From Candidatus Sulfobium sp. (GTDB lineage: Bacteria; Nitrospirota; Thermodesulfovibrionia; Thermodesulfovibrionales; UBA6898), in contig JARRRI010000050.1 of the NCBI GenBank assembly GCA_037380845.1, forward strand, positions 1 through 14,772: a stretch of 14,772 nucleotides of DNA, in the 5' to 3' direction. The position numbers and the translations under genes are program-made. The first letter of the stretch is position 1. Every line of letters begins with the position of its first letter. Below, one piece after another: positions 1,945 through 14,772 of this stretch. The notes under the pieces were generated by a model. That model was not told the origin of the DNA, ran no database searches, and was given only the letters and a program-made list of their open reading frames with translations.

Positions 1945-1978
1945 TGACTAACGCTGGAGAAATATGTAAATATGATCC

Positions 1979-2007
1979 CTCTGCGCCCTCTGCGTCTTTG
2001 CGGTGAA
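1979..2007 (-). repeat. Solo arm of the TTCACCGCAGAGACGCAGAG repeat family
   Basis: ctctgcgccctctgcgtctttgcggtgaa is nearly identical to the arm at 13087-13117. Confidence 0.85.
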
Positions 2008-3403: not shown

Positions 3404-3684
3404 CCGCAGACCCTCAGGGACTAACAAACACACACGCTGGCAAGCACCAAGCTTACAAGCTATCAAGCCTACAAGCTATCAAGCCTACAAGCTATCAAGC
3501 CTACAAGCTATCAAGCCTACAAGCTATCAAGCCTACAAGCTATCAAGCCTACAAGCTGTCAAGCCTACAAGCTGTCAAGCCTACAAGCTATCAGGCCAGC
3601 AAGCTAGGAGGCAAAGTCCGGTATATCAGCCCTCGGCTGTCGGTTTTCAGCTGAAAAACAGCCTTTTTTACCGCAGACACTCGC
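3404..3684 (+). repeat. Long direct repeat, copy 1 (281 bp), containing a 16-bp tandem array (CAAGCCTACAAGCTAT-like x10, 3448-3607)
   Basis: Aligns with 4688-4904 from ccgcagaccctc to ccgcagacactcgc. The 3' part (caagctaggaggcaaagtccgg...ccgcagacactcgc) reads identical in both copies. Confidence 0.95.
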
Positions 3685-4687: not shown

Positions 4688-4904
4688 CCGCAGACCCTCG
4701 CAGACTAACAAACACACACGCTAGCAAGCACCAAGCCGACAAGCTATCAAGCCAGCAAGCTATCAAGCCTACAAGCTGTCAAGCCTACAAGCTATCAGGC
4801 CTACAAGCTATCAGGCCAGCAAGCTAGGAGGCAAAGTCCGGTATATCAGCCCTCGGCTGTCGGTTTTCAGCTGAAAAACAGCCTTTTTTACCGCAGACAC
4901 TCGC
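4688..4904 (+). repeat. Long direct repeat, copy 2 (217 bp), with 6 units of the 16-bp array (4732-4827)
   Basis: Same sequence as 3404-3684 but 64 bp (4 x 16 bp) shorter. Confidence 0.95.
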
Positions 4905-4926: not shown

Positions 4927-5022
4927 TTCACCACAGAGGCGCGGAGAGCACAGAGATTTATCCGCCTCCGGCGAAATAAAACGATTCTTTGTTTTCCGTT
5001 GAGAGGACGGAGAACAAAGAAT
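4927..5022 (+). repeat. Arm + TGAGAGG-loop hairpin repeat unit
   Basis: Arm ttcaccacagaggcgcggagagcacagaga. Hairpin attctttgttttccgt-TGAGAGG-acggagaacaaagaat (4984-5022). Confidence 0.85.
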
Positions 5023-5101
5023 ATCAGCTAGCCTCACGCCCATTGTCTTCTTCTTTTTGATTTTTACCATAGCCTATAGCCTATTGCCTTCTTTTTGCCT
5101 G

Positions 5102-5144
5102 TTGACACAAAAGGGCGGGAATTGTTATTGTTCAAAAGATGAAC
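5102..5144 (+). promoter_or_regulatory. Sigma70 promoter with an overlapping inverted-repeat operator candidate
   Basis: TTGACA at 5102-5107, an 18-bp spacer and TGn-TATTGT at 5123-5131. GTTCA-N5-TGAAC at 5130-5144 spans the ATG at 5139. Confidence 0.7.
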
Positions 5145-5747
5145 GACGAGCGCTTCCCGGGTGCTGAACAGCACAGGGCACTGCAGATACTGGATGAACT
5201 GTCCTCTGATGAATCACTGACGCAGAGGGATTTGAGCAGTAGATTGGGCATCGCCCTGGGTCTTGTCAATTCCTATCTGAAGAACCTTGTAGCAAAAGGA
5301 TATGTTACCGTGAAGTCAATACCGCCCAGGAGGTATGCCTATTTTCTTACACCCAAGGGGTTTGCCGAAAAGACAAGGCTTACCTATGATCTGCTCCATG
5401 ACTATACCAGGATTTATCGTGAAGCAAGGGGCGGCTTCAAGAGGCTGTTTGCCGGACTGATGGCAGAGGGAGCCGGAACCGTTGTTCTGGCGGGCGCCGA
5501 CGAGGTGGCGGAGATAGCCTACCTGACCCTCCAGGAGATCGGACTCGGGCTCTCGGGTGTCGTAGACGAGGAGCTGGCGGGAAAGAAATTCTTCGGATGG
5601 GAAGTGAAGCCGCTGAAAGATGTGAGGTCCTTCGCATATGACAAGGTTGTGGTGGCGTCCTATTTAAAAAGAGAGAAGATTTACGATCAACTCCTCCGTT
5701 ACAAGGTGGCTGAGGAAGACATAAAAGTGGTTTTTGGAACAAGCTGA
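5139..5747 (+). CDS. Winged-helix transcriptional regulator, EPS-associated MarR-like, with C-terminal Rossmann-like domain
   Basis: HTH TQRDLSSRLGIALGLVNSYLKNLVAKGYV and wing YAYFLTPKGFAEKTRLT, typical of the MarR_EPS-type family. The C-terminal VVLAGADEVAEIA...GVVD segment resembles a dinucleotide-binding fold. Confidence 0.85.
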   Translation: MNDERFPGAEQHRALQILDELSSDESLTQRDLSSRLGIALGLVNSYLKNLVAKGYVTVKSIPPRRYAYFLTPKGFAEKTRLTYDLLHDYTRIYREARGGFKRLFAGLMAEGAGTVVLAGADEVAEIAYLTLQEIGLGLSGVVDEELAGKKFFGWEVKPLKDVRSFAYDKVVVASYLKREKIYDQLLRYKVAEEDIKVVFGTS

Positions 5748-5985
5748 CGCTCCAAGCTGGCAGGCTGACAAGCTATCAAGCTGGCAAGCGAAAAGAAGCT
5801 ATCAAGCCTGCAGCTTGTTAGGTTGGTTTTAAAGCTCTCCAGCGGGTTAGTTTTTCTGGACGAGCTATTGCCGGCAGCCGAGCTGAACGCATGTAAGCTT
5901 TTGGGTTTGTGAGCTTGAGAGCTTGCCGGCTTGATGGCTTGTAAGCTTTTGGGTTTGTAAGCTTGATAGCTTGTAAGCTTGTAAG
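5740..5985. repeat. Two convergent clusters of 8-bp CAAGCnnn repeats
   Basis: The forward cluster at about 5740-5814 (caagctgg caggctga caagctat caagctgg...) faces a reverse cluster at about 5892-5985 (gcttgata gcttgtaa gcttgtaa). tgtaagcttttgggtttgt is duplicated at 5892 and 5940. Confidence 0.85.
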
Positions 5986-6035
5986 GCGGTAGCCCGTCCA
6001 AAATCAGGGAAAAGACAAAAAGAAGGCTCGAGGCA

Positions 6036-9000
6036 ATGGGCTATCGACAATCACAAAAGAGATTACGGATAGTGGACGGTACGCGTTTCTTCCTGTCACC
6101 TATTGCCTATCGTCTGTTGTTGTTTTTTTGCGTTATGCTCGTCGCCCTCTGTTCCCTCAGTTCGATGGCTTACGCGGAAACCGGCAAGACCCCTCAGCTC
6201 GATATCAAGGCTCTTGCGCCGGGCATCGCGAAACAGTTGGAAAAGAGCGGCCTGGCGAATGTGCTTGTGGTGCTGGATGACAGCGACGCATGGACCTTTG
6301 CCGCCCGGCAGAGAAAGATACACGGTCTCAGATACGACAACGCGGCGATTCTGGCCGGGAAAGTCCCTATCCTGAGACGGGAGAAGGACAGCGTACTTTC
6401 GAGGATGTCGCTTCAGAATTACAGGGTCCTCGCCGATTATGACAATTTCCCTGTCCTTTATCTGCAGGTCAATGAGCATGCCGTGGCGCATTTGCAGGCA
6501 ATGAAAGAAGTAAAGGCTGTCAGCGAAAACAGGGCCCTGAGGCCTTTCTACACGGACAACCAGAACCTCATAGGCGCGGCGTCGGCCTGGACATATGGAG
6601 GAGGACAGACGGGCGCCGGCACTGCGGTGGCCGTGCTGGACAGCGGCGTAGATTATTTGCTGAGCGACTTCGGTACATGTTCGGCGCCGGGCGATCCCGG
6701 TTGCAGCGTTGCCTTCGAACAATGCTTCGCGACTGAGGGCGGGGCCCTGGCGACTCCCAGTTGCTATCCCGATAATTCGCATGGTACGAACGTCCAGGGG
6801 ATCGTCCTTCAGGTAGCGCCCGGCACGAAGCTGCTTTCCCTTGATGTATTCGGCCCTTATGACTACGCCTATGACAGCGATGTCCTGGATGCCTTGAACT
6901 GGGTCGTCGCAAACCAGGCTACTTACAATATCGTAGCGGCAAACATGAGCATGGGCGCGGGCATTTATACTGCCCCTTGTCCGAACGATCCCCTCGCTTC
7001 CGCAATAAGCACCCTGAGGAGCGCCGGTATGGTTACGACGGTTTCATCGGGCAACAGCGGGTGGGCCGGCGGGCTCGCTTCTCCGGCCTGCGCGCCGGAT
7101 GCGGTCTCTGTCGGCGCCGTATATGCGAATGATTATGGACCGCAGTCCTGGTCGGTCTGCAGCGATTCTTCAACCGCGGCAGACCAGGTGGCCTGTTTTT
7201 CGGACAGTTCATCTTTTCTGACGCTGCTTGCCCCCGGTTCGGTCATTACCGCTGCGGGGATCACCATGAGCGGCACTTCTCAGGCGGCCCCGCATGTGGC
7301 GGGCTCCGCGGCGGTGCTGAAGGAGCAGAACAGCGCCCTGACGGTCGATGAGGAAGTCGCCAGACTGGAGGCCACGGGCGTGCCCGTTCTCGACGGGAAG
7401 AACGACATCACCAAGCCCCGAATCGATCTTTACTCCGCTGTTTCTGTAACAAGCCCGATCCTGGTGACAAGCCCGGCGGATTTTGAATTTGTGTCGCCGG
7501 ACAATGTTGCGCCCCCCGGCCAGACACTCAAGATAATTAACGGCGGAACGGGTACGATGAACTGGACTGCAGACAACGGCGGGTCGTCGTGGTTGCTGCC
7601 TGCGCCCGGGTCGGGGACGGGTACCACAGACGTCTCGGTGGACATTGACCCGACGGGCCTCACTCCCGGAACATACAACGGCCAGCTTACGATATCGGCG
7701 ACGGATGCGTCGGCCAATCCGGCACTTGATTCGCCGGCAAACATACCGGTTACCCTCAAAGTGCTGGACCCGGCCTACAGCGAGGATTTCGAAACCGGCG
7801 ACCTGGCAAAGCTGCCATGGGTGACCGGAGGGGACGGAACATGGTCTGTGGAGAGCGCGACCGTCTTCCGGGGTACTTACTCTGCACAGTCTCCGGCAAT
7901 CTCAGACAGCCAGTCCAGCTATCTGCAGGTCACCCTGAATGTGACGTCCCCGGGATATGTTTACTTCCGGCTTAAGACGGACACCGAGCCGACCTACGAT
8001 AACCTCAAGTTCTATGTGGACGGTGTCAACGAAGGACCTTTTTACGGGTGGTCCGGAAATACGGACTGGACGCTGGGCCGGTCGGAGTACGAGGTAACTC
8101 CGGGCGTTCACACATTTAAATGGATATATTCAAAGGATGGAAGCGTATCGGATGGTAGCGACGCAGTCTGGCTCGACGATGTCTTCTTCCCGCCCTGGAA
8201 CCTGGTGTCCGTTGATCCGGAGGCATATGACTTCGGTGAAGTGGCCCTGAGCAGCTCGTCTTTCCCCCGGACCTTTACGGTGTCGAATATCAGCGGAGCC
8301 GCGGTCTCGCTGGGAAGTGTTTCTATATCCGGTCCGGATGCCGCCGAGTTTGCGATCGGTGCGGACAACTGCTCGGGACAGTCACTGGGAGCGGCAGGCA
8401 GCGGGACCGATACCTGCACGGTGGACGTGACCTTCAACCCTGTGTCGCCAAAGGGTGTCAAAAGCGCTCTGCTGTCGATTCCGGCAGGCCCGACTGTAAG
8501 CATCGCTTCAATAAGCGGAACCGCCGGTCTCAAGCGTACGCTTACCATCGACAAGAATACTGCCTATGCCAGCGGCACGGGTGTCGTCTCGAGCACTCCT
8601 GCGGGCATAGACTGCGGAAGTGTATGCTCGGCAAGGTTTTTTGACGGTGACACCGTCACATTGAATGCAACGCCCGACCCCGGCTCGACCTTCAGCGGCT
8701 GGTCGGGCGGCTGTACGAGCGACCCATGCAATATAACGCTTACGGCCGACACAACGGTTTACGCAACCTTTGAGACCATACCGCCAACCGCCGGCTTCAG
8801 CGGCTCTCCGCTGTCGGGGATGGCGCCTCTGGCGGTTACGTTTACGGACGCGTCCTCGGCAAATACATCTGCCTGGTCCTGGAATTTCGGCGACGGAGGA
8901 CAAAGTTCGGTACAGAATCCGGTTTACACTTACACCAATCCCGGCACCTATTCAGTATCTCTCACGGTTGCAAATCCGGGAGGTTCGGATACCATGACGA

Positions 9001-9299
9001 GGAACGACTATGTGATCGTGTCGTGTCCGGTCCTGCCGGTGCGGATCTCGAGGCAGGCATCACTCTATTTTTCCATTGTTCAAGACGCTTTTAACGCCGC
9101 GTTCTATTCCGGAGATACTATAGAGATACATGACGGCGCGACCATCGCTGACACGCCGTCCCTCGACGGGCTCAAGACAATAACACTCAGGGGCGGATAT
9201 GATGAGTGTTTCGCCGCCAGTTCGGGGTACAGCACGATCCAGGGCTCCCTTACGGTAGTCAACGGGACGCTAACTGTCGACCGGATAATAATGCAATGA
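6036..9299 (+). CDS. Secreted multidomain S8 (subtilisin-like) serine protease with propeptide, BACON/Ig-like, jelly-roll, ASH/Hydin-like Ig, InlB-B-like and PKD domains
   Basis: Catalytic motifs are AVLDSGVD (Asp), NSHGTNV (His), SSGNSG (oxyanion Asn) and SGTSQAAPHVAG (Ser). The signal-like segment ends in AYA and the PKD motif is WSWNFGDG. The start codon is uncertain (6036 or 6135). Confidence 0.92.
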   Translation: MGYRQSQKRLRIVDGTRFFLSPIAYRLLLFFCVMLVALCSLSSMAYAETGKTPQLDIKALAPGIAKQLEKSGLANVLVVLDDSDAWTFAARQRKIHGLRYDNAAILAGKVPILRREKDSVLSRMSLQNYRVLADYDNFPVLYLQVNEHAVAHLQAMKEVKAVSENRALRPFYTDNQNLIGAASAWTYGGGQTGAGTAVAVLDSGVDYLLSDFGTCSAPGDPGCSVAFEQCFATEGGALATPSCYPDNSHGTNVQGIVLQVAPGTKLLSLDVFGPYDYAYDSDVLDALNWVVANQATYNIVAANMSMGAGIYTAPCPNDPLASAISTLRSAGMVTTVSSGNSGWAGGLASPACAPDAVSVGAVYANDYGPQSWSVCSDSSTAADQVACFSDSSSFLTLLAPGSVITAAGITMSGTSQAAPHVAGSAAVLKEQNSALTVDEEVARLEATGVPVLDGKNDITKPRIDLYSAVSVTSPILVTSPADFEFVSPDNVAPPGQTLKIINGGTGTMNWTADNGGSSWLLPAPGSGTGTTDVSVDIDPTGLTPGTYNGQLTISATDASANPALDSPANIPVTLKVLDPAYSEDFETGDLAKLPWVTGGDGTWSVESATVFRGTYSAQSPAISDSQSSYLQVTLNVTSPGYVYFRLKTDTEPTYDNLKFYVDGVNEGPFYGWSGNTDWTLGRSEYEVTPGVHTFKWIYSKDGSVSDGSDAVWLDDVFFPPWNLVSVDPEAYDFGEVALSSSSFPRTFTVSNISGAAVSLGSVSISGPDAAEFAIGADNCSGQSLGAAGSGTDTCTVDVTFNPVSPKGVKSALLSIPAGPTVSIASISGTAGLKRTLTIDKNTAYASGTGVVSSTPAGIDCGSVCSARFFDGDTVTLNATPDPGSTFSGWSGGCTSDPCNITLTADTTVYATFETIPPTAGFSGSPLSGMAPLAVTFTDASSANTSAWSWNFGDGGQSSVQNPVYTYTNPGTYSVSLTVANPGGSDTMTRNDYVIVSCPVLPVRISRQASLYFSIVQDAFNAAFYSGDTIEIHDGATIADTPSLDGLKTITLRGGYDECFAASSGYSTIQGSLTVVNGTLTVDRIIMQ

Positions 9300-9303
9300 G
9301 AAA

Positions 9304-9364
9304 CAAGCCGGGAAGCCACCAAGCTATCAAGCTGACAAGCGTGCAAGGCTTCAAGCTATCAGCT
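9304..9364 (+). repeat. Cluster of 8-bp CAAGCnnn repeats
   Basis: caagccgg gaagccac caagctat caagctga caagcgtg ... caagctat, directly after the protease stop. Confidence 0.8.
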
Positions 9365-9597
9365 GTTGGCAGAAAAAAAGCGGTAAACGATATAGACAAG
9401 AACTGAATGGAGAATGGAAGATGAAGCATGGCGCAAGGACCAAGAAAGACCAAACAACGATGACAATCAGCGAAAGCGTGCTGCGGAGCCGGAGCGCCTC
9501 TGGAGACAGGTCGCTATCAATAGTAATTTCATGGTTATACTCTCTGCGCTCTGCGCTGCGCCGTCTGCGTAACGCGAGCCTCACGATTAATCGGAAT

Positions 9598-10113
9598 ATG
9601 GTTTGTCTTTTGATGGTCGTAGGACTGGGAATGATTTCAACTGTAGTTCCTGCCCGGGCTGTGATGGTGGGACTGAGCACCGAGGAACTTACGAAAAATG
9701 CGGACCTGGTTGTCAAGGGGAAAGTGGAGAGCGTCAAGAGTGTATGGGACGAAGACGGTAAGCGCATCGTCACAAGAGTTACGATAGCAGGTCCATCGGT
9801 GATTAGAGGTGCTTCAGATCGGGGGCGTATAATTATCGAATATCCCGGCGGAGAAGTCGGCGGCATCGGCATGAAGGTATCGGATGTTGATCCTCTCCAG
9901 GAAGGTGAAGAGGTAATTCTCTTCCTGAAAGCGGGAAGAACCGTGAAGGACGGACGTATATATCACCTTGTCGGGAAAGCCCAGGGGAAGTACACGGTGG
10001 GAGATGACGGCATCGCGAGAAAGAAGGGGTTTTCACTTGCCGCGGGGGCTGAGAAGGTCGATAACAATATCCCGGTCGACAGGTTGATAGAAAAGATAGA
10101 GAGGGTGCAATGA
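9598..10113 (+). CDS. Secreted hypothetical protein, probable TIMP/NTR-like OB-fold
   Basis: Signal peptide ending PARA, then LSTEELTKNADLVVKGKV...PGGEVGG...GEEVILFL. Its stop overlaps the next ATG (ATGA). The ORF is open from 9421, but that extension is repeat-rich, so the start is uncertain. Confidence 0.75.
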   Translation: MVCLLMVVGLGMISTVVPARAVMVGLSTEELTKNADLVVKGKVESVKSVWDEDGKRIVTRVTIAGPSVIRGASDRGRIIIEYPGGEVGGIGMKVSDVDPLQEGEEVILFLKAGRTVKDGRIYHLVGKAQGKYTVGDDGIARKKGFSLAAGAEKVDNNIPVDRLIEKIERVQ

Positions 10114-11819
10114 TGGTAAAGACTGCACTTCTCGCATATGCCCTTTTTCCGGTTCTGCTCGCCGGTCTGATGCCCGTGAATGCCCTCGGGTATGTGGCAT
10201 GTAAGACGGGTGGCGGGCTCGACATAAAGTGGAGCACTCCTAACGTGAATTACATGGTCAACGAGGCGGGCGGGCCTGTGGGGGGGAGCCTTGCGGCTTT
10301 GCAGGCGGGTATGCAGACATGGACAGATGTGGGCAGCTCGATTTTTGTCTTTTCTTATGGTGGTGCGACTTCGAAGACTGCGGCCGACTGCGGCACCAAC
10401 GACGGGGTAAATATGATTGCCTTTGGCCCTATGGGAACGGGGGACGGGATTCTGGCCCAAAATACCTATTGGTACACAAACGGAGGCGGCATACTGGACA
10501 GCGACATCCAGGTCAACACCAGCTATTCATGGAGCGCCGCCGGGGCTGCGGGATACTACGATATACAGAATGTAGTAACTCACGAGATGGGACATACGCT
10601 CTGCCTGGCGGACTTGTATAACTCCTCCGACGCGGAGAAGACCATGTACGGATATGCTGCAAAGGGCGAGACAAAGAAGAGGACGCTCGATCCGGACGAC
10701 ATAAGCGGAATTTCATATCTCTACCCGGCACCCAATATAGTGGTAACGCCGGCATCCTTAGCGTTTGGAAGCGTCGATGTCGGAAATGCCTTGCAGCAGG
10801 ACATTACGGTGACTAATAATGGAGCGGCAAATCTTGTCTTAGGGACTGTTATCGGGCCTTCCGCGCCTTTCAGCCTCGTGAGCGATTCCTGTTCGGGGAA
10901 GACTGTAGCTCCTGCGACTGGAAGCTGCGCGGTTACGTTGAGATTTGAACCCGCTGCGGCGACGGTATACAGCGGTAATCTCAACATTCCATCTAACGAC
11001 CCCGATCAGAACCCGGCAACAGTGGGCCTGAGCGGAACGGGAGTTATGACCACCTATACGCTTTCAGTGAGCAGGGGCGGCACCGGAAGTGGCACGGTTA
11101 CGAGCACGCCGGGGGGAATAGACTGCGGTCCGACCTGCTCTGCAGCGTATATCCAGGGAGCGGGCGTGACACTCGGCGCAGTGCCGGGAGCTGATTCAAC
11201 TTTTGCGGGCTGGCAAGGCGCGGGCTGCAGCGGGACAGGCTCGTGCGGTGTAACGATGACCGGCGATATGATTGTCACCGCGACTTTCAACATGATTCGG
11301 CCGACCGCTGATTTCAGCGCCGTGACGACAACCGGCCAGGCCCCGCTGTATGTAAGCTTCACCGACACCTCGACGCACAGTCCTTCCCAGTGGACCTGGG
11401 ACTTCGGTGACGGGGGGATCAGTACCCTGGAGAACCCGTCATATACTTACACGACCGCTGGTACTTACACGGTCTCGCTCACCGTGGCGAACGATGGTGG
11501 TTCGGATCTGGTAACCAAAACGGGACTTATCACGGTCTCAACATGCTCAAACTCGTCTGTGCGGCTTATGTCAGGGGCCTCGACGGTGGATTATGCGGAT
11601 CTGGCTACGGCTGTCGGCGACGCTGTCGTCGCGGGAGATGTCATCGAGGCCCAAGCCGTGTCTTTCACCGGAGACCTCATCTTCGACAAGGGTGTTGAGG
11701 TGACCCTGAATGGAGGATACGGTTGCGATTATCAGGCAAATCCCTCGGCGACAACAGTCACGGGATCTCTTGCGGTAACCTCGGGCACACTTACGGTGGA
11801 AGGAGTGTCAATTCAATAG
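10110..11819 (+). CDS. Secreted matrixin-like (metzincin) zinc metalloprotease with ASH/Hydin-like Ig, InlB-B-like and PKD domains
   Basis: Signal peptide ending VNA, zinc motif YDIQNVVTHEMGHTLCLAD, Met-turn KTMYG, LDPDDISGISYLY helix and PKD motif WTWDFGDG. Confidence 0.9.
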   Translation: MMVKTALLAYALFPVLLAGLMPVNALGYVACKTGGGLDIKWSTPNVNYMVNEAGGPVGGSLAALQAGMQTWTDVGSSIFVFSYGGATSKTAADCGTNDGVNMIAFGPMGTGDGILAQNTYWYTNGGGILDSDIQVNTSYSWSAAGAAGYYDIQNVVTHEMGHTLCLADLYNSSDAEKTMYGYAAKGETKKRTLDPDDISGISYLYPAPNIVVTPASLAFGSVDVGNALQQDITVTNNGAANLVLGTVIGPSAPFSLVSDSCSGKTVAPATGSCAVTLRFEPAAATVYSGNLNIPSNDPDQNPATVGLSGTGVMTTYTLSVSRGGTGSGTVTSTPGGIDCGPTCSAAYIQGAGVTLGAVPGADSTFAGWQGAGCSGTGSCGVTMTGDMIVTATFNMIRPTADFSAVTTTGQAPLYVSFTDTSTHSPSQWTWDFGDGGISTLENPSYTYTTAGTYTVSLTVANDGGSDLVTKTGLITVSTCSNSSVRLMSGASTVDYADLATAVGDAVVAGDVIEAQAVSFTGDLIFDKGVEVTLNGGYGCDYQANPSATTVTGSLAVTSGTLTVEGVSIQ

Positions 11820-11868
11820 CTATCAAGCGCACAAGCTATCAAGCCGGCAAGCATACAAGCTATCAAGT
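11817..11868 (+). repeat. Cluster of 8-bp CAAGCnnn repeats beginning at the stop codon
   Basis: tagctat caagcgca caagctat caagccgg caagcata caagctat caagt. Confidence 0.85.
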
Positions 11869-11956
11869 CGCAAATATTCCAGTATGATCGTTACGCAGGA
11901 ACATATAGTTTGAACGGCAAGCGGGATAAAATCTTGAGGACATACGATGATATTTT

Positions 11957-12026
11957 TTGTTTTCCATCTTCTCAACGGAAAACAAGAGGGAATATTTCTC
12001 CGCGCCCTCTGCGTCTCTGCGATGAA
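11957..12026 (-). repeat. Arm + hairpin repeat unit (minus strand, loop TGAGAAG)
   Basis: On the minus strand the arm is ttcatcgcagagacgcagagggcgcggag and the hairpin is ttgttttccgt-TGAGAAG-atggaaaacaa. Confidence 0.85.
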
Positions 12027-12072
12027 AGTCTTTTTTATCTTTTGTCTATGCATAAGTGAAGAATTGTTGTGG

Positions 12073-12918
12073 ATGAGAATCGACATTCTGAAAATCATTG
12101 AAATCGCCGAACTGGCCGGTAAGGCGGTCATGGATGTCTATTCCAGGGAAGACCCGGGCACTACCTACAAGGAGGATTGTTCTCCGCTGACCCTGGCGGA
12201 CACCGCTTCCCAGAAAGTCATCCTGGCTGCTCTCCGGAAGCTGACCCCGGAGTTGCCGGTATTGTCGGAGGAGTCGAAGACGGTGCCTTACGAGGAAAGA
12301 AAAGCGTGGAGAGCTTACTGGCTTGTAGACCCTCTTGACGGGACAAAGGAATTCATAAAGAGGAACGGGGAATTTACGGTCAATATTGCATTGATCGAGG
12401 GCGGGGTACCAGTCATGGGAGTCGTGAATGCTCCGGTCCTGGGACGTACATATTACGCTGCAAGGGGAGAAGGGGCCTTCAGGAAGGAGGCCGGTAAAGA
12501 GCCGGAGAGGATCGGGGTCAGCAGCGACTCGGCGGGCGTCCTGAAAGTGGCCGGCAGCCGTTCCCACGGCGTAGGGGCGCTTGAGAAGTTCCTTGAAGGC
12601 CTCGGTCCCCACGAGCTGGTGAGCATGGGGAGTTCGCTGAAGTTCTGCCTGGTGGCCGAAGGATCGGCCCACCTCTATCCAAGGCTGGGTCCCACGATGG
12701 AATGGGACACCGCAGCCGCCCAGTGCGTAGTAGAAGAGGCCGGCGGCTTTGTAACGGATTTGCAGGGGAACAGGCTGAGGTATAACAAAGAAGACCTGCA
12801 TAATCCCAACTTCATCGTCGTATGTTGCGAAGGGATCGGGCTTGCAAGCCAACAGGCTTACAAATCCGGAACCGAAATACATTCACCGCAGAGACGCAGA
12901 GTGCGCAGAGAGGTTTAG
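12073..12918 (+). CDS. cysQ: 3'(2'),5'-bisphosphate nucleotidase (PAP phosphatase)
   Basis: SPLTLAD, VLSEE, WLVDPLDGTKEFIKRNGEFTVNIALI, SRSH, GSSLKFCLVAEG and MEWDTAAAQ. The start is placed at ATG 12073 because the upstream extension is repeat DNA. Confidence 0.95.
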   Translation: MRIDILKIIEIAELAGKAVMDVYSREDPGTTYKEDCSPLTLADTASQKVILAALRKLTPELPVLSEESKTVPYEERKAWRAYWLVDPLDGTKEFIKRNGEFTVNIALIEGGVPVMGVVNAPVLGRTYYAARGEGAFRKEAGKEPERIGVSSDSAGVLKVAGSRSHGVGALEKFLEGLGPHELVSMGSSLKFCLVAEGSAHLYPRLGPTMEWDTAAAQCVVEEAGGFVTDLQGNRLRYNKEDLHNPNFIVVCCEGIGLASQQAYKSGTEIHSPQRRRVRREV

Positions 12919-13117
12919 TTATATATTTCTGCTGAGAGGGCAGAAATATATAAAACTGCCGGCTTTCCGCATAACCTTGATGGAGGAAGATATAATTTGG
13001 ACGGTAAACGGGGATAAGATCGTGAGAGCAAGTACAGGATATTTTTTTATTTTCCGCCCTCTCAGCGGAAAACAAAAAGGGAGTATCTCTCAGCGCCCTC
13101 TGCGTCTCTGCGGTGAA
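12882..13117. repeat. Inverted doublet of arm+hairpin units (236 bp; REPIN/MITE-like)
   Basis: 31-bp terminal inverted arms with 2 mismatches (12882-12912 and 13087-13117). Hairpins lie at 12919-12953 (+ strand loop TGAGAGG) and 13044-13078 (- strand loop TGAGAGG). Confidence 0.92.
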
Positions 13118-13186
13118 TATATGTCTTTTGTTTCATATAGCAGTTTACGCAATAACAGAAACATATAAACTGCCAAGGGGGATTTG

Positions 13187-13570
13187 ATGGATCTTAATGA
13201 ATTAAGCAGTTCGATTATCGGTGCGGCTATAGAGGTGCATAAATTTGTAGGACCCGGTCTTCTTGAATCGGCGTATGAAGAATGCCTGTGTCATGAGTTA
13301 ACTCGCCGAAAAATAGCATTTGAAAGGCAAAAGGCTTTGCCGATAGTTTATAAAGATTGTAGATTGGACTGCGGTTATAGGGTTGACGTTGTTGTTAACA
13401 ATGCAGTAATAGTTGAATTGAAAGCGTGCGAACAGGTGGAGCCGATTCACAAGGCACAGCTGTTGACATACCTCAGGTTATCCGGCATTGCTTTGGGGCT
13501 TCTTTTGAACTTCAATATGCCGGTCATGAAGGATGGTATCATTCGCATAGTAAATGAGATAAGTGAATGA
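13187..13570 (+). CDS. GxxExxY protein (PD-(D/E)XK nuclease fold, PDDEXK_3)
   Basis: IIGAAIEVHKFVGPGLLESAYEECL signature, YRVDVVV...IVELKA nuclease motif and HKAQLLTYL...GLLLNF. SD-like AAGGGGG upstream of ATG 13187. Confidence 0.95.
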   Translation: MDLNELSSSIIGAAIEVHKFVGPGLLESAYEECLCHELTRRKIAFERQKALPIVYKDCRLDCGYRVDVVVNNAVIVELKACEQVEPIHKAQLLTYLRLSGIALGLLLNFNMPVMKDGIIRIVNEISE

Positions 13571-13618
13571 CCGCATAACACCAGGCTTATCTCGGAGATC
13601 ATAAGACAAGGCAAATGG

Positions 13619-13793
13619 TTCACCGCAGAGATACAGAGATCGCAGAAAAAGATTCTTGGCGAGACGTTGGAGCACCGAGTGCCGGATTTCTGTTTTTTCC
13701 GGCGTCTCAGCGGAAAACAGAAAAGATATTCACCTGCGGTTGCAGGCGAATGGAGGATTTTAAAGCTCTGTGACCTCTGCGTCTCTGCGGTGA
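13619..13793. repeat. Inverted arm pair with internal hairpins (175 bp)
   Basis: Arms are ttcaccgcagagatacagagatcgcaga and ctctgtgacctctgcgtctctgcggtga. The hairpin at 13687-13723 has minus-strand loop TGAGACG. An extra hairpin reads attcacctgc-ggtt-gcaggcgaat. Confidence 0.88.
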
Positions 13794-13857
13794 GGGACCT
13801 TTTTAGAAGCTTGCTACCCACCGACTTACGAATTGAGGACCAAAGGAAATATTGAAA

Positions 13858-14499
13858 ATGGACAACGGTAACGTCATCTGGCACCACGCCACTGTTACCC
13901 GGAAGCGGCGGGAGGAGAAGAACGGCCACCGGAGCGTTATTCTTTGGTTTACGGGGCTGTCCGGGGCGGGGAAGTCGACTCTTGCCCATGCGGTGGAGGA
14001 GAGGCTGCATCAGATGGGCTGCAGGACATTCGTTTTCGACGGCGACAACGTCCGCCACGGCCTGAACTGCAACCTGGGCTTTTCACCGGAAGAGCGGAAG
14101 GAGAACATCAGGCGGATCGGCGAGATGTGCAAGCTGTTCGTCGAGGCCGGCGTTATCGCACTGACAGCCTTCATTTCACCCTTCCGGGAGGACAGGGAGA
14201 AGGTCCGCAGTCTTGTGAACGAGGGTGATTTTATCGAGATATTCTGCGCCTGCAGCATCGAGGTCTGTGAAAGCAGGGACGTGAAGGGCATGTACGCCAG
14301 GGCGAGAAGGGGAGAAATCGAAAATTTCACCGGCATATCTTCGCCTTATGAACCGCCCGAAAATCCGGAGCTTGTTTTCGACACCGGAAATGTCCCCCTG
14401 GAAGAATGCGTAGAGAGGATCGTGTCCTACCTGGTGGAGAAGGCAGTGATAAAGAAGAAAATTCACCACGGACACACTGAGGCACGGAGGAAGTTGTAA
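13858..14499 (+). CDS. cysC: Adenylyl-sulfate (APS) kinase
   Basis: NVIWH start, P-loop [48 protein letters not shown] and [11 protein letters not shown]. An alternative start is TTG at 13852. Confidence 0.96.
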
Positions 14500-14552
14500 C
14501 CGCGGACGGGCACAGACGGTCAGGCAGACCACGGGAATAAGAAAAACAATGT

Positions 14553-14624
14553 TTCACCGCAGAGACGCAGAGGTCTCAGAGGGTTTTAATTATATGTTTC
14601 TGCTGAGAGGGCAGAAACATATAA
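14553..14624 (+). repeat. Arm + TGAGAGG-loop hairpin repeat unit
   Basis: Arm ttcaccgcagagacgcagaggtctcagag. Perfect 14-bp hairpin ttatatgtttctgc-TGAGAGG-gcagaaacatataa (14590-14624). Confidence 0.92.
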
Positions 14625-14673
14625 ACTGCTCGCCGTCGGCATGATGGTTTTGAGAGTATCCAAAAGTCTTATT

Positions 14674-14770
14674 CGTCATTCCCGAGGCATTAGTCAGGCG
14701 AAGCGACTCTCAGCGAAGTCGTAGCGACCCTGCGCGGAGACCCGCTTCGGGACTCGCATCGAGAATCCAG
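14674..14770 (+). repeat. CGTC-tagged REP-like palindrome with an expanded interior
   Basis: Begins cgtcattcccga and ends tcgagaatccag, resembling CGTCATTCCCG...CGGGAATCC repeats. It contains small internal hairpins. Confidence 0.5.
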
Positions 14771-14772
14771 GT

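Follow-up and report, generated by a model that had tools for sequence, protein, structure and literature searches.

The stretch of DNA analysed here, hereafter the window, comprises 14,772 nucleotides of contig JARRRI010000050.1 from Candidatus Sulfobium sp., whose genome amounts to 3.18 Mb. Its genes include a prepilin peptidase gene, a nucleotidyltransferase/HepT toxin-antitoxin pair and, towards the right end, cysQ and cysC, between which an open reading frame (ORF) encodes a GxxExxY nuclease (PF13366/TIGR04256). In the same window we observed six hairpins whose seven-nucleotide loop reads TGAGAGG in four cases, TGAGAAG in the hairpin at 11955 and TGAGACG in that at 13687. Each lies downstream of a conserved arm on its own strand, and the polarity of the loop relative to the arm is constant. 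These features, as well as the one compensatory A-T/G-C pair that distinguishes the hairpins at 12919 and 14590, had been reported in a preliminary description of this DNA and were all recovered by reading the sequence and locating the exact strings. That description missed the inverted pairing of the units, which form both termini of a single cassette, and the GxxExxY nuclease gene carried by this cassette when complete.

The arm and the hairpin form one end of a composite palindrome

The arm together with its hairpin is one end of a composite palindrome and not a free-standing site. Along one strand, the palindrome consists of an arm, hairpin 1 with the loop TGAGAGG, a centre, hairpin 2, which shows CCTCTCA on that same strand, and a reversed arm. 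In the full form of about 0.6 kb, the outer arm starts with TTCACC and is built of three tandem CGCAGAG-type units. It is followed by hairpin 1 with a stem of 12-20 bp and, directly thereafter, by the ribosome-binding site of a gene of about 127 codons encoding a GxxExxY (PD-(D/E)XK) nuclease; hairpin 2, with TGAGAGG on the opposite strand, is located just after the stop codon and precedes the reversed arm. The short forms of 110-230 nt are devoid of the gene and outnumber the gene-bearing copies. These miniatures arise by internal deletion of the full form.

Among the arm matches two types of hairpin can be distinguished, namely type A with a TATATATTTCTGC-type stem and type B with a TTTTGTTTTCCGG-type stem. 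In the genome that contains the window, arm-A and arm-B units face each other in compact units of about 160-200 nt, and in the related genomes G002, G003, G012 and G022 pairs of hairpins A(+) and B(-) are found about 52 nt apart. The complete copies read in G002 and G003 measure 158-162 nt in 12 of 16 cases and 204-228 nt in the other four, and a form of about 110 nt with a single hairpin is present in G022. When 14 compact copies taken from five genomes were aligned, the arm units as well as the two hairpins proved near-invariant and the spacers variable. The element ends read GGTGAA in this alignment, and the columns between arm and hairpin vary, so that there is no conserved motif at the hairpin foot. 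The consensus fold of the 14 copies is a three-way junction with 27 pairs in the arms, 15 in hairpin A and 13 in hairpin B. The inverted-repeat listing of the window gives the arms as 80-90% complementary.

When DNA folding was applied to the window, all six hairpins surpassed 200 of 200 dinucleotide shuffles (z -3.4 to -9.0). As RNA, the complete miniature at 12878-13121 folds at -105 kcal/mol (z -9.9); in an alternative fold the A region pairs with the B region.

The loop is kept as sequence and the stem as structure

The covariation of the stem was assessed in a set of 59 hairpins, comprising 53 that were selected by the arm only and the six of the window. In this set 86.4% of the cells were paired, compared to 73.6% in shuffled alignments, and 155 double-sided changes were counted versus 61. 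The covariation score amounted to 0.398 versus 0.152 in the shuffles, none of which (0/500) reached the observed value, and controls with a slid alignment remained at or below 0.18. The columns that are not fixed by the search pattern (13/43, 15/41, 16/40 and 17/39) contributed 13-27 double changes per pair. In contrast to the stem, the loop is invariant in T, G, A, G, A and the final G, and its sixth letter is variable. These data support the earlier proposal that in the stem it is the structure that is maintained and in the loop the sequence. The AGAG(G) core of the loop also occurs, as read from the sequence, in the arm units.

Both strands of the hairpin fold equally well. The preliminary description had taken the single stem mismatches, which are G-T wobbles on the strand reading TGAGANG, as an indication of strand polarity. 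This applies to the three copies in the window; among 98 distinct hairpins of the wider sample, however, 16 isolated GT/TG mispairs stand against 15 AC/CA mispairs, and wobble polarity was therefore rejected as evidence of a single functional strand.

Kissing of the two loops (UGAGAGG/CCUCUCA) was likewise considered as a cause of loop conservation. One element, L146, agrees with it and carries TGAGACG at both ends. Unmatched loops were found in L127, in the copy on contig C39 of the own genome, in L199 and in the group L056/L057/L121/L137. Since the loop pairs do not covary within elements with this one exception, kissing does not explain the conservation of the loop and was rejected.

The hairpins are the ends of a cassette with a GxxExxY nuclease gene

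In the window, the 3' half of an A-type hairpin is located directly upstream of the start codon of the GxxExxY gene, and hairpin B together with a reversed arm is situated downstream. As the A remnant precedes the start and B follows the stop, the end next to the start codon is of type A in this genus and the one next to the stop codon of type B. PF13366 was searched in the genomes behind four loci with GxxExxY centres, and 15 genes or remnants were examined. Four of them (L197, L198, L199 and L201) reside in complete units of arm, hairpin 1, ORF, hairpin 2 and arm. Together with L200, in which hairpin 1 is interrupted, and L208, where only the 3' half of the unit is present, 6 of the 15 bear the hairpin; the other nine lack it and have arms of other kinds. 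When 36 proteins were placed in a tree, a single branch (support 94/96) set the six hairpin-bearing ones apart on one side, and none of 500 label shuffles was as clustered.

Moreover, for 9 of 104 hairpins among the matches listed, a profile built from 32 proteins detected a piece of GxxExxY at a distance of up to 250 nt on the inner side. Five of these pieces are N-terminal and in sense orientation and four are C-terminal and antisense, as would be expected if the hairpins are opposite ends of a cassette. In a sample of 121 genomes of the class to which the window belongs, PF13366 was present in 34, often with N- or C-terminal fragments. We found no correlation between the copy number of PDDEXK_3 and that of the element.

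The structure of the nuclease was predicted with confidence (predicted local distance difference test, pLDDT, 94.4). No sequence match in the PDB at E<=0.01 and no Foldseek match at E<=0.001 were obtained. The function of PF13366 is given as 'Unknown' in a listing in PMC3424549, and the literature within reach, with subscription journals and bioRxiv supplements lying outside it, yielded nothing on the function of GxxExxY, PDDEXK_3, PF13366 or TIGR04256. It likewise contained the arm sequence in no relevant context (solely in unrelated mouse work) and nothing on intergenic palindromic repeats of Desulfobacter that resemble miniature inverted-repeat transposable elements (MITEs).

Metagenome contigs of three runs (X3, X8 and X9) contain, at full depth, an extra T after position 13355, which would frameshift the GxxExxY gene in those populations; the copy in the window is intact. 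In four genomes of the class (L179, L182, L188 and L196), GxxExxY cassettes with different arms were observed downstream of a YebC-type gene. A RuvC-type start comes next in L179, L188 and L196, and L182 ends before the following gene (assigned by Pfam for L179 and by eye for the others).

Elements and element remnants in the window

The window contains complete, half and decayed copies of the element (Table 1). In a first scan for a TGAGANG loop on a stem of at least nine pairs, 13 sites were found in the own genome, five of them inside the window. A covariance model of the hairpin (R1) returned 17 sites (E<=0.01), six of which are in the window, and 43 arm-like strings with up to three mismatches to an 18-mer were counted in the genome. 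Beyond the six hairpins with their arms, the window holds a decayed end, an extra arm, a variant arm and the A-type half hairpin in front of the nuclease gene.

Table 1. Foldback elements and their parts in the window, with hairpins placed by exact string location; each of the six hairpins has an arm 5' of it on the same strand.
Element	Position	Strand	Arm	Hairpin	Other features
Decayed end	1956..2007	-	1978-2007	A-type, 5' half, 1956-1976	Overlap with the prepilin peptidase gene (3' end)
Half element	4927..5022	+	4927-4955	B-type, 4984-5022 (+), loop TGAGAGG	Small extra hairpin 4957-4980; no reversed arm after the hairpin
Half element	11861..12026	-	11997-12026 (-)	B-type, 11955-11987 (-), loop TGAGAAG	Centre 11861-11954
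Complete gene-less element	12878..13121	+	12882-12912; reversed, 13087-13117 (-)	A, 12919-12953 (+); B, 13044-13078 (-), TGAGAGG on - strand	90-nt centre
Gene-bearing cassette	13122..13798 (about)	+	Extra, 13619-13646 (+); reversed, 13766-13794 (-)	A remnant, 3' half, 13156-13174; B, 13687-13723 (-), TGAGACG on - strand	GxxExxY/PDDEXK_3 ORF 13184-13570
Variant arm and end	14462..14624	+	Variant, 14462-14489 (+), in the cysC 3' end; 14553-14582	A, 14590-14624 (+)	No partner half seen before the scaffold gap at 14773

The centres 12954-13045 and 11861-11958 were compared with the GxxExxY gene. With tblastn nothing better than E=13 over 15 residues was obtained, and no fragment was identified in them when the genome was searched with Pfam. 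At the nucleotide level, the centre 11861-11954 weakly resembles the 3' end of the gene, in an alignment that is suggestive only.

The cysQ frame crosses the left arm of the complete gene-less element to a stop codon at 12916-12918 (12882-12918), and the cysC frame likewise enters an arm (14462-14499). Both host genes thus owe their final 10-13 codons and their stops to the element. The orthologues of cysQ and cysC in G002 end in other repeat types.

The element is patchily distributed across distant lineages

The exact 21-letter pattern of the hairpin core was searched in the own genome and 40 relatives. Seven matches were found in the own genome and 2, 36 and 46 in G001, G002 and G003 of the same genus, respectively. 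In other genera of the same family the pattern occurred in G012 (7), G022 (8), G008 (1) and G014 (1), and the remaining 33 genomes had no match. The reversed pattern, employed as a control, had none in all 41 genomes. The matches come as +/- pairs and many are located at contig ends. Within the family, 7 of 24 other genomes contain the pattern; in the phylum, the element was detected at E<=1e-4 and with stricter filters in none of 150 other genomes. In the order of G146, by comparison, 11 of 41 genomes including G146 itself were positive, with 1 to 35 matches each.

In a wider contig collection at least 126 loci match the pattern, against a chance expectation over the whole collection that was estimated arithmetically at some tens. 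Among the matches listed, 104 hairpins are distinguished by a long stem or by an arm upstream of them; judged by the record titles, most of these belong to Desulfobacteraceae, Desulfobacterales, Syntrophaceae, Syntrophorhabdales and metagenome-assembled genomes of Thermodesulfobacteriota, some to Thermodesulfovibrionales, Nitrospirae, Nitrospira and Nitrospinaceae, and few to others. Matches of the chance type have stems of 7-9 bp and no arm, eight of them in one Streptomyces gene. In the wider loci, hairpin 1 is followed on its 3' side by a centre that varies, by a second hairpin whose stems are quite different and whose loop reads CCTCTCA on the same strand, and by the reversed arm. Taken together, this looks like an undescribed selfish element in many genomes of the sulfate-reducer type and of Nitrospirota.

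Congeners differ in the occupancy of orthologous sites

Three elements of the own genome, on contigs C57, C66 and C5, are matched in G002 or G003 by an element at the corresponding site. Three loci (L222, L228 and L226) are filled in G002, whereas in the own genome gaps of 26-34 nt remain between the aligned flanks. Two others (L029 and L030) are filled in G002 or G003 and hold a different foldback in the own genome. The cysQ-cysC spacer, which contains the GxxExxY cassette in the own genome, is occupied by a PF05635 gene in G001 and G002, and in G003 an arm, a hairpin A and a start-codon remnant are located downstream of cysC. Pairwise alignments of ten orthologous spacers showed presence and absence and no clean boundary. 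The sequencing runs listed as containing positions 11800-14772 stem from marsh communities, among others, and include none of RNA. In the contigs of four metagenome DNA runs, joints and loose ends stem from other repeat copies in mixed communities, and no usable empty-site allele was obtained. The orientation of the miniatures relative to the host genes is mixed, matching the upstream ORF in 15 of 23 cases and the downstream ORF in 7 of 11.

In the cysQ-cysC spacers of G002 (L038, G002:C69:8333-8698) and G001 (L035, G001:C58), the PF05635 gene, annotated as '23S rRNA-intervening sequence protein', lies between inverted GCATAG-type arrays. In addition, a further conserved module of the AATATTTTGGTTCCGGCTTTGC type was observed outside the arm, sometimes on both sides and inverted, in L007, L029, L222, L230, L234 and L226 and at 12858-12881 of the window. 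Since this outer module is missing from the empty site of the own genome, the true end of the element may lie beyond the arm.

A probable terminal module of a selfish foldback cassette

We consider it probable that the arm with its hairpin is the cis-acting terminal module of a selfish foldback cassette. The cassette would be a selfish unit that resides in operon spacers and points in the same direction as the host gene upstream. Its two ends would each be recognised in a folded form, as extruded or single-stranded DNA, and in the same manner at both ends. The recognising protein would read the loop; which protein does so, and whether on DNA or RNA, is a matter of inference, with the nuclease of the cassette as the first candidate. 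The AGAG(G) core shared by loop and arm units may bear on this recognition, and propagation or replacement would proceed by cutting and repair at existing arms. More tentatively, the clade of GxxExxY cassettes may represent a new class of prokaryotic mobile element, in which a minimal PD-(D/E)XK nuclease would read its own folded DNA ends via the AGAG(G) motif, present three times in the tandem arm and once in the hairpin loop; such a cassette would spread or replace rivals by cutting existing foldbacks in operon spacers. We regard this extension as less likely than not. The hairpin end module is apparently new within a class of GxxExxY foldback cassettes that itself is apparently unpublished.

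Several observations weigh against an interpretation that combines a selfish cassette with recognition of its ends by the nuclease. In the sample of 121 genomes, many GxxExxY genes sit between inverted arrays of other short tandem repeats and lack TGAGAGG hairpins. With so many cassettes having arms and no hairpins, the class as such does not require the hairpin, which is an accessory feature of a single clade. Furthermore, the sole PF13366 gene of G002 (36 pattern matches, 94% complete) has CACAGAG/CACGGAG arms and no hairpin, and no PF13366 gene was found in G003 (46 pattern matches, 89% complete), so that the genomes richest in miniatures show no visible cognate nuclease. The predicted fold of the nuclease resembles solely generic PD-(D/E)XK enzymes, and these weakly: Cas4 (E 3e-3), lambda exonuclease and Hjc. 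Neither a target-site duplication nor a clean boundary was seen in the flanks of 16 elements and in three pairs of filled and empty sites, and sequence divergence has also affected the spacers that surround filled and empty sites. Finally, 30 of 32 GxxExxY genes point, according to rough ORF calls, in the same direction as the host ORF upstream, and this co-orientation fits a role at the RNA level equally well.

Such an RNA-level element would resemble the intervening sequences of rRNA and would reside in operons, transcribed from the upstream host gene. The arms would pair into a long double-stranded stem cut by RNase III, and the hairpins would form caps at the 5' and 3' termini of the liberated nuclease mRNA or of the host mRNAs on either side; complementary loops could kiss. 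Intervening sequences of the 23S rRNA that bear an ORF occur, among others, in Leptospira. They share with the present element the character of a small selfish insert in which inverted repeats form a long stem around a small ORF, and the gene for a '23S rRNA-intervening sequence protein' (PF05635) fills the orthologous spacer of G001 and G002. For Coxiella, ORF-bearing intervening sequences of the 23S rRNA are described in PMC4990558. The present elements differ from these in that they reside in protein-coding operon spacers, with no rRNA match in the window (Rfam), and comprise a different ORF family and additional subterminal hairpins. In favour of this alternative, the arms pair over about 27-35 bp in RNA folds (the -105 kcal/mol and z -9.9 given above), the co-orientation extends to the downstream ORF in 24 of 33 cases (rough ORF calls), the elements abut coding regions such that cysQ and cysC end inside arms, and the two hairpins flank the nuclease gene, one immediately ahead of its ribosome-binding site and the other immediately behind its stop codon. 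However, the loops do not covary pairwise within elements, the single-hairpin elements of G022 have no kissing partner, the miniatures occur in either orientation to the host genes, the wobble pairs show no strand bias, and the capping of ends would need no invariant loop. On these grounds we judge an RNA-level element to be rather unlikely.

The preliminary description had named a substrate of an HUH/RAYT-like transposase among its candidates; the HUH enzymes considered here are RAYT and the TnpA of IS200/IS605. REP palindromes possess a conserved short motif of the GTAG type at their 5' foot, and their Y1 HUH transposase is flanked by the repeats; IS200/IS605 elements have subterminal hairpins on the same strand at both ends and encode a Y1 TnpA. 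The likeness to the REPIN/REP-RAYT system (REPtron) is evident in the inverted doublets of short, hairpin-forming intergenic repeats, in many gene-less copies beside a rare or single enzyme gene that is flanked by the same repeats, and in a copy number that varies among relatives. The own genome moreover encodes two PF01797 proteins. However, neither of the two 3.3-kb PF01797 loci contains the hairpin pattern or a three-unit arm, and the copy on contig C35 has its own, unrelated 24-nt inverted repeat. The gene inside the full elements encodes a PD-(D/E)XK protein of about 127 amino acids (PF13366) and not a Y1 HUH transposase, the ends consist of tandem-heptamer arms and a separate hairpin with an invariant loop, a conserved tetranucleotide at the hairpin foot is lacking, and, unlike in IS200/IS605, the TGAGAGG loops lie on opposite strands at the two ends. 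An HUH substrate is accordingly disfavoured as highly improbable. A signal serving the host, such as a terminator, an insulator or the site of a regulator kept by host need, would be in agreement with the strictly intergenic location and with the conservation of hairpins and arms beyond that of the spacers. As previously stated, simple terminators do not account for the hairpins: there is no U-tail on either strand, and on both strands the T-rich runs are paired to the A-rich ones. Presence and absence at orthologous sites, copy numbers from 2 to 46 among congeners, the patchy distribution across lineages and the unrelated neighbouring genes also speak against such a signal, which we deem quite improbable. 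In line with the earlier failure to recognise a named family, Rfam returned no match at E<=1 for the whole window on both strands.

As for the PF01797 gene on contig C35 (L002, G000:C35:24512-27838), this Y1 transposase gene is apparently split by a frameshift from a downstream helix-turn-helix part, and the locus is bracketed by the inverted repeat mentioned above.

A selfish foldback cassette also invites comparison with two further systems. Like MITEs, the elements have terminal inverted repeats, measure 110-230 nt, derive by internal deletion from a longer coding parent and occur in bursts that break assemblies in some genomes. Unlike in MITEs, no target-site duplication was seen, the parent is devoid of a recognised transposase, and the repeats are built of tandem short units. 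With the attC sites of integrons they have in common imperfect palindromes between genes, a structure that is maintained more than the stem sequence, and a cassette content that varies at a fixed site. Here, however, the loop and the tandem-repeat arms are conserved instead of R and L boxes, the ends read GGTGAA, and the neighbours cysQ and cysC are syntenic housekeeping genes.

If the nuclease did read its own ends, the invariant loop of seven nucleotides would be the first concrete, mutable recognition site for PF13366/TIGR04256, a large family without an assigned function. In any case, an invariant loop on a freely varying stem offers the most testable handle yet on recognition of the cassette. 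Mutants of loop versus stem could separate sequence from structure read-out, and DNA from RNA substrates. The element shapes the intergenic space of whole lineages. Host genes receive stop codons and C-terminal tails from it, and it causes assemblies to break. When the module is recognised during annotation, spurious small ORFs and erroneous 'regulatory RNA' assignments are avoided.

Other repeats in the window

Apart from the TGAGANG hairpins, arrays of 8-nt tandem units (CAAGCTAT/CAAGCCTA) were observed at 3423-3626, 4707-4846 (+) and 5877-5992 (inverted), and also at 9295-9378 and 11817-11880. They are arranged in inverted orientation around the nucleotidyltransferase/HepT toxin-antitoxin pair and a MarR-like gene, and the segments 3512-3684 and 4732-4904 are 97% identical. 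These arrays look like another arm family of the same foldback kind. Eight tandem 9-nt units of the GAACCGTTT type are located at 749-837, between the 3' end of recG and the next ORF. Over the last 100 nt before the scaffold gap (14674-14772, GTCATTCCCGAGG... type), contigs of marsh metagenomes add up to a depth of as much as about 1290. The same GTCATTCCCGAGG-type repeat recurs beside elements in relatives (L013 and L033) and constitutes another widespread repeat.

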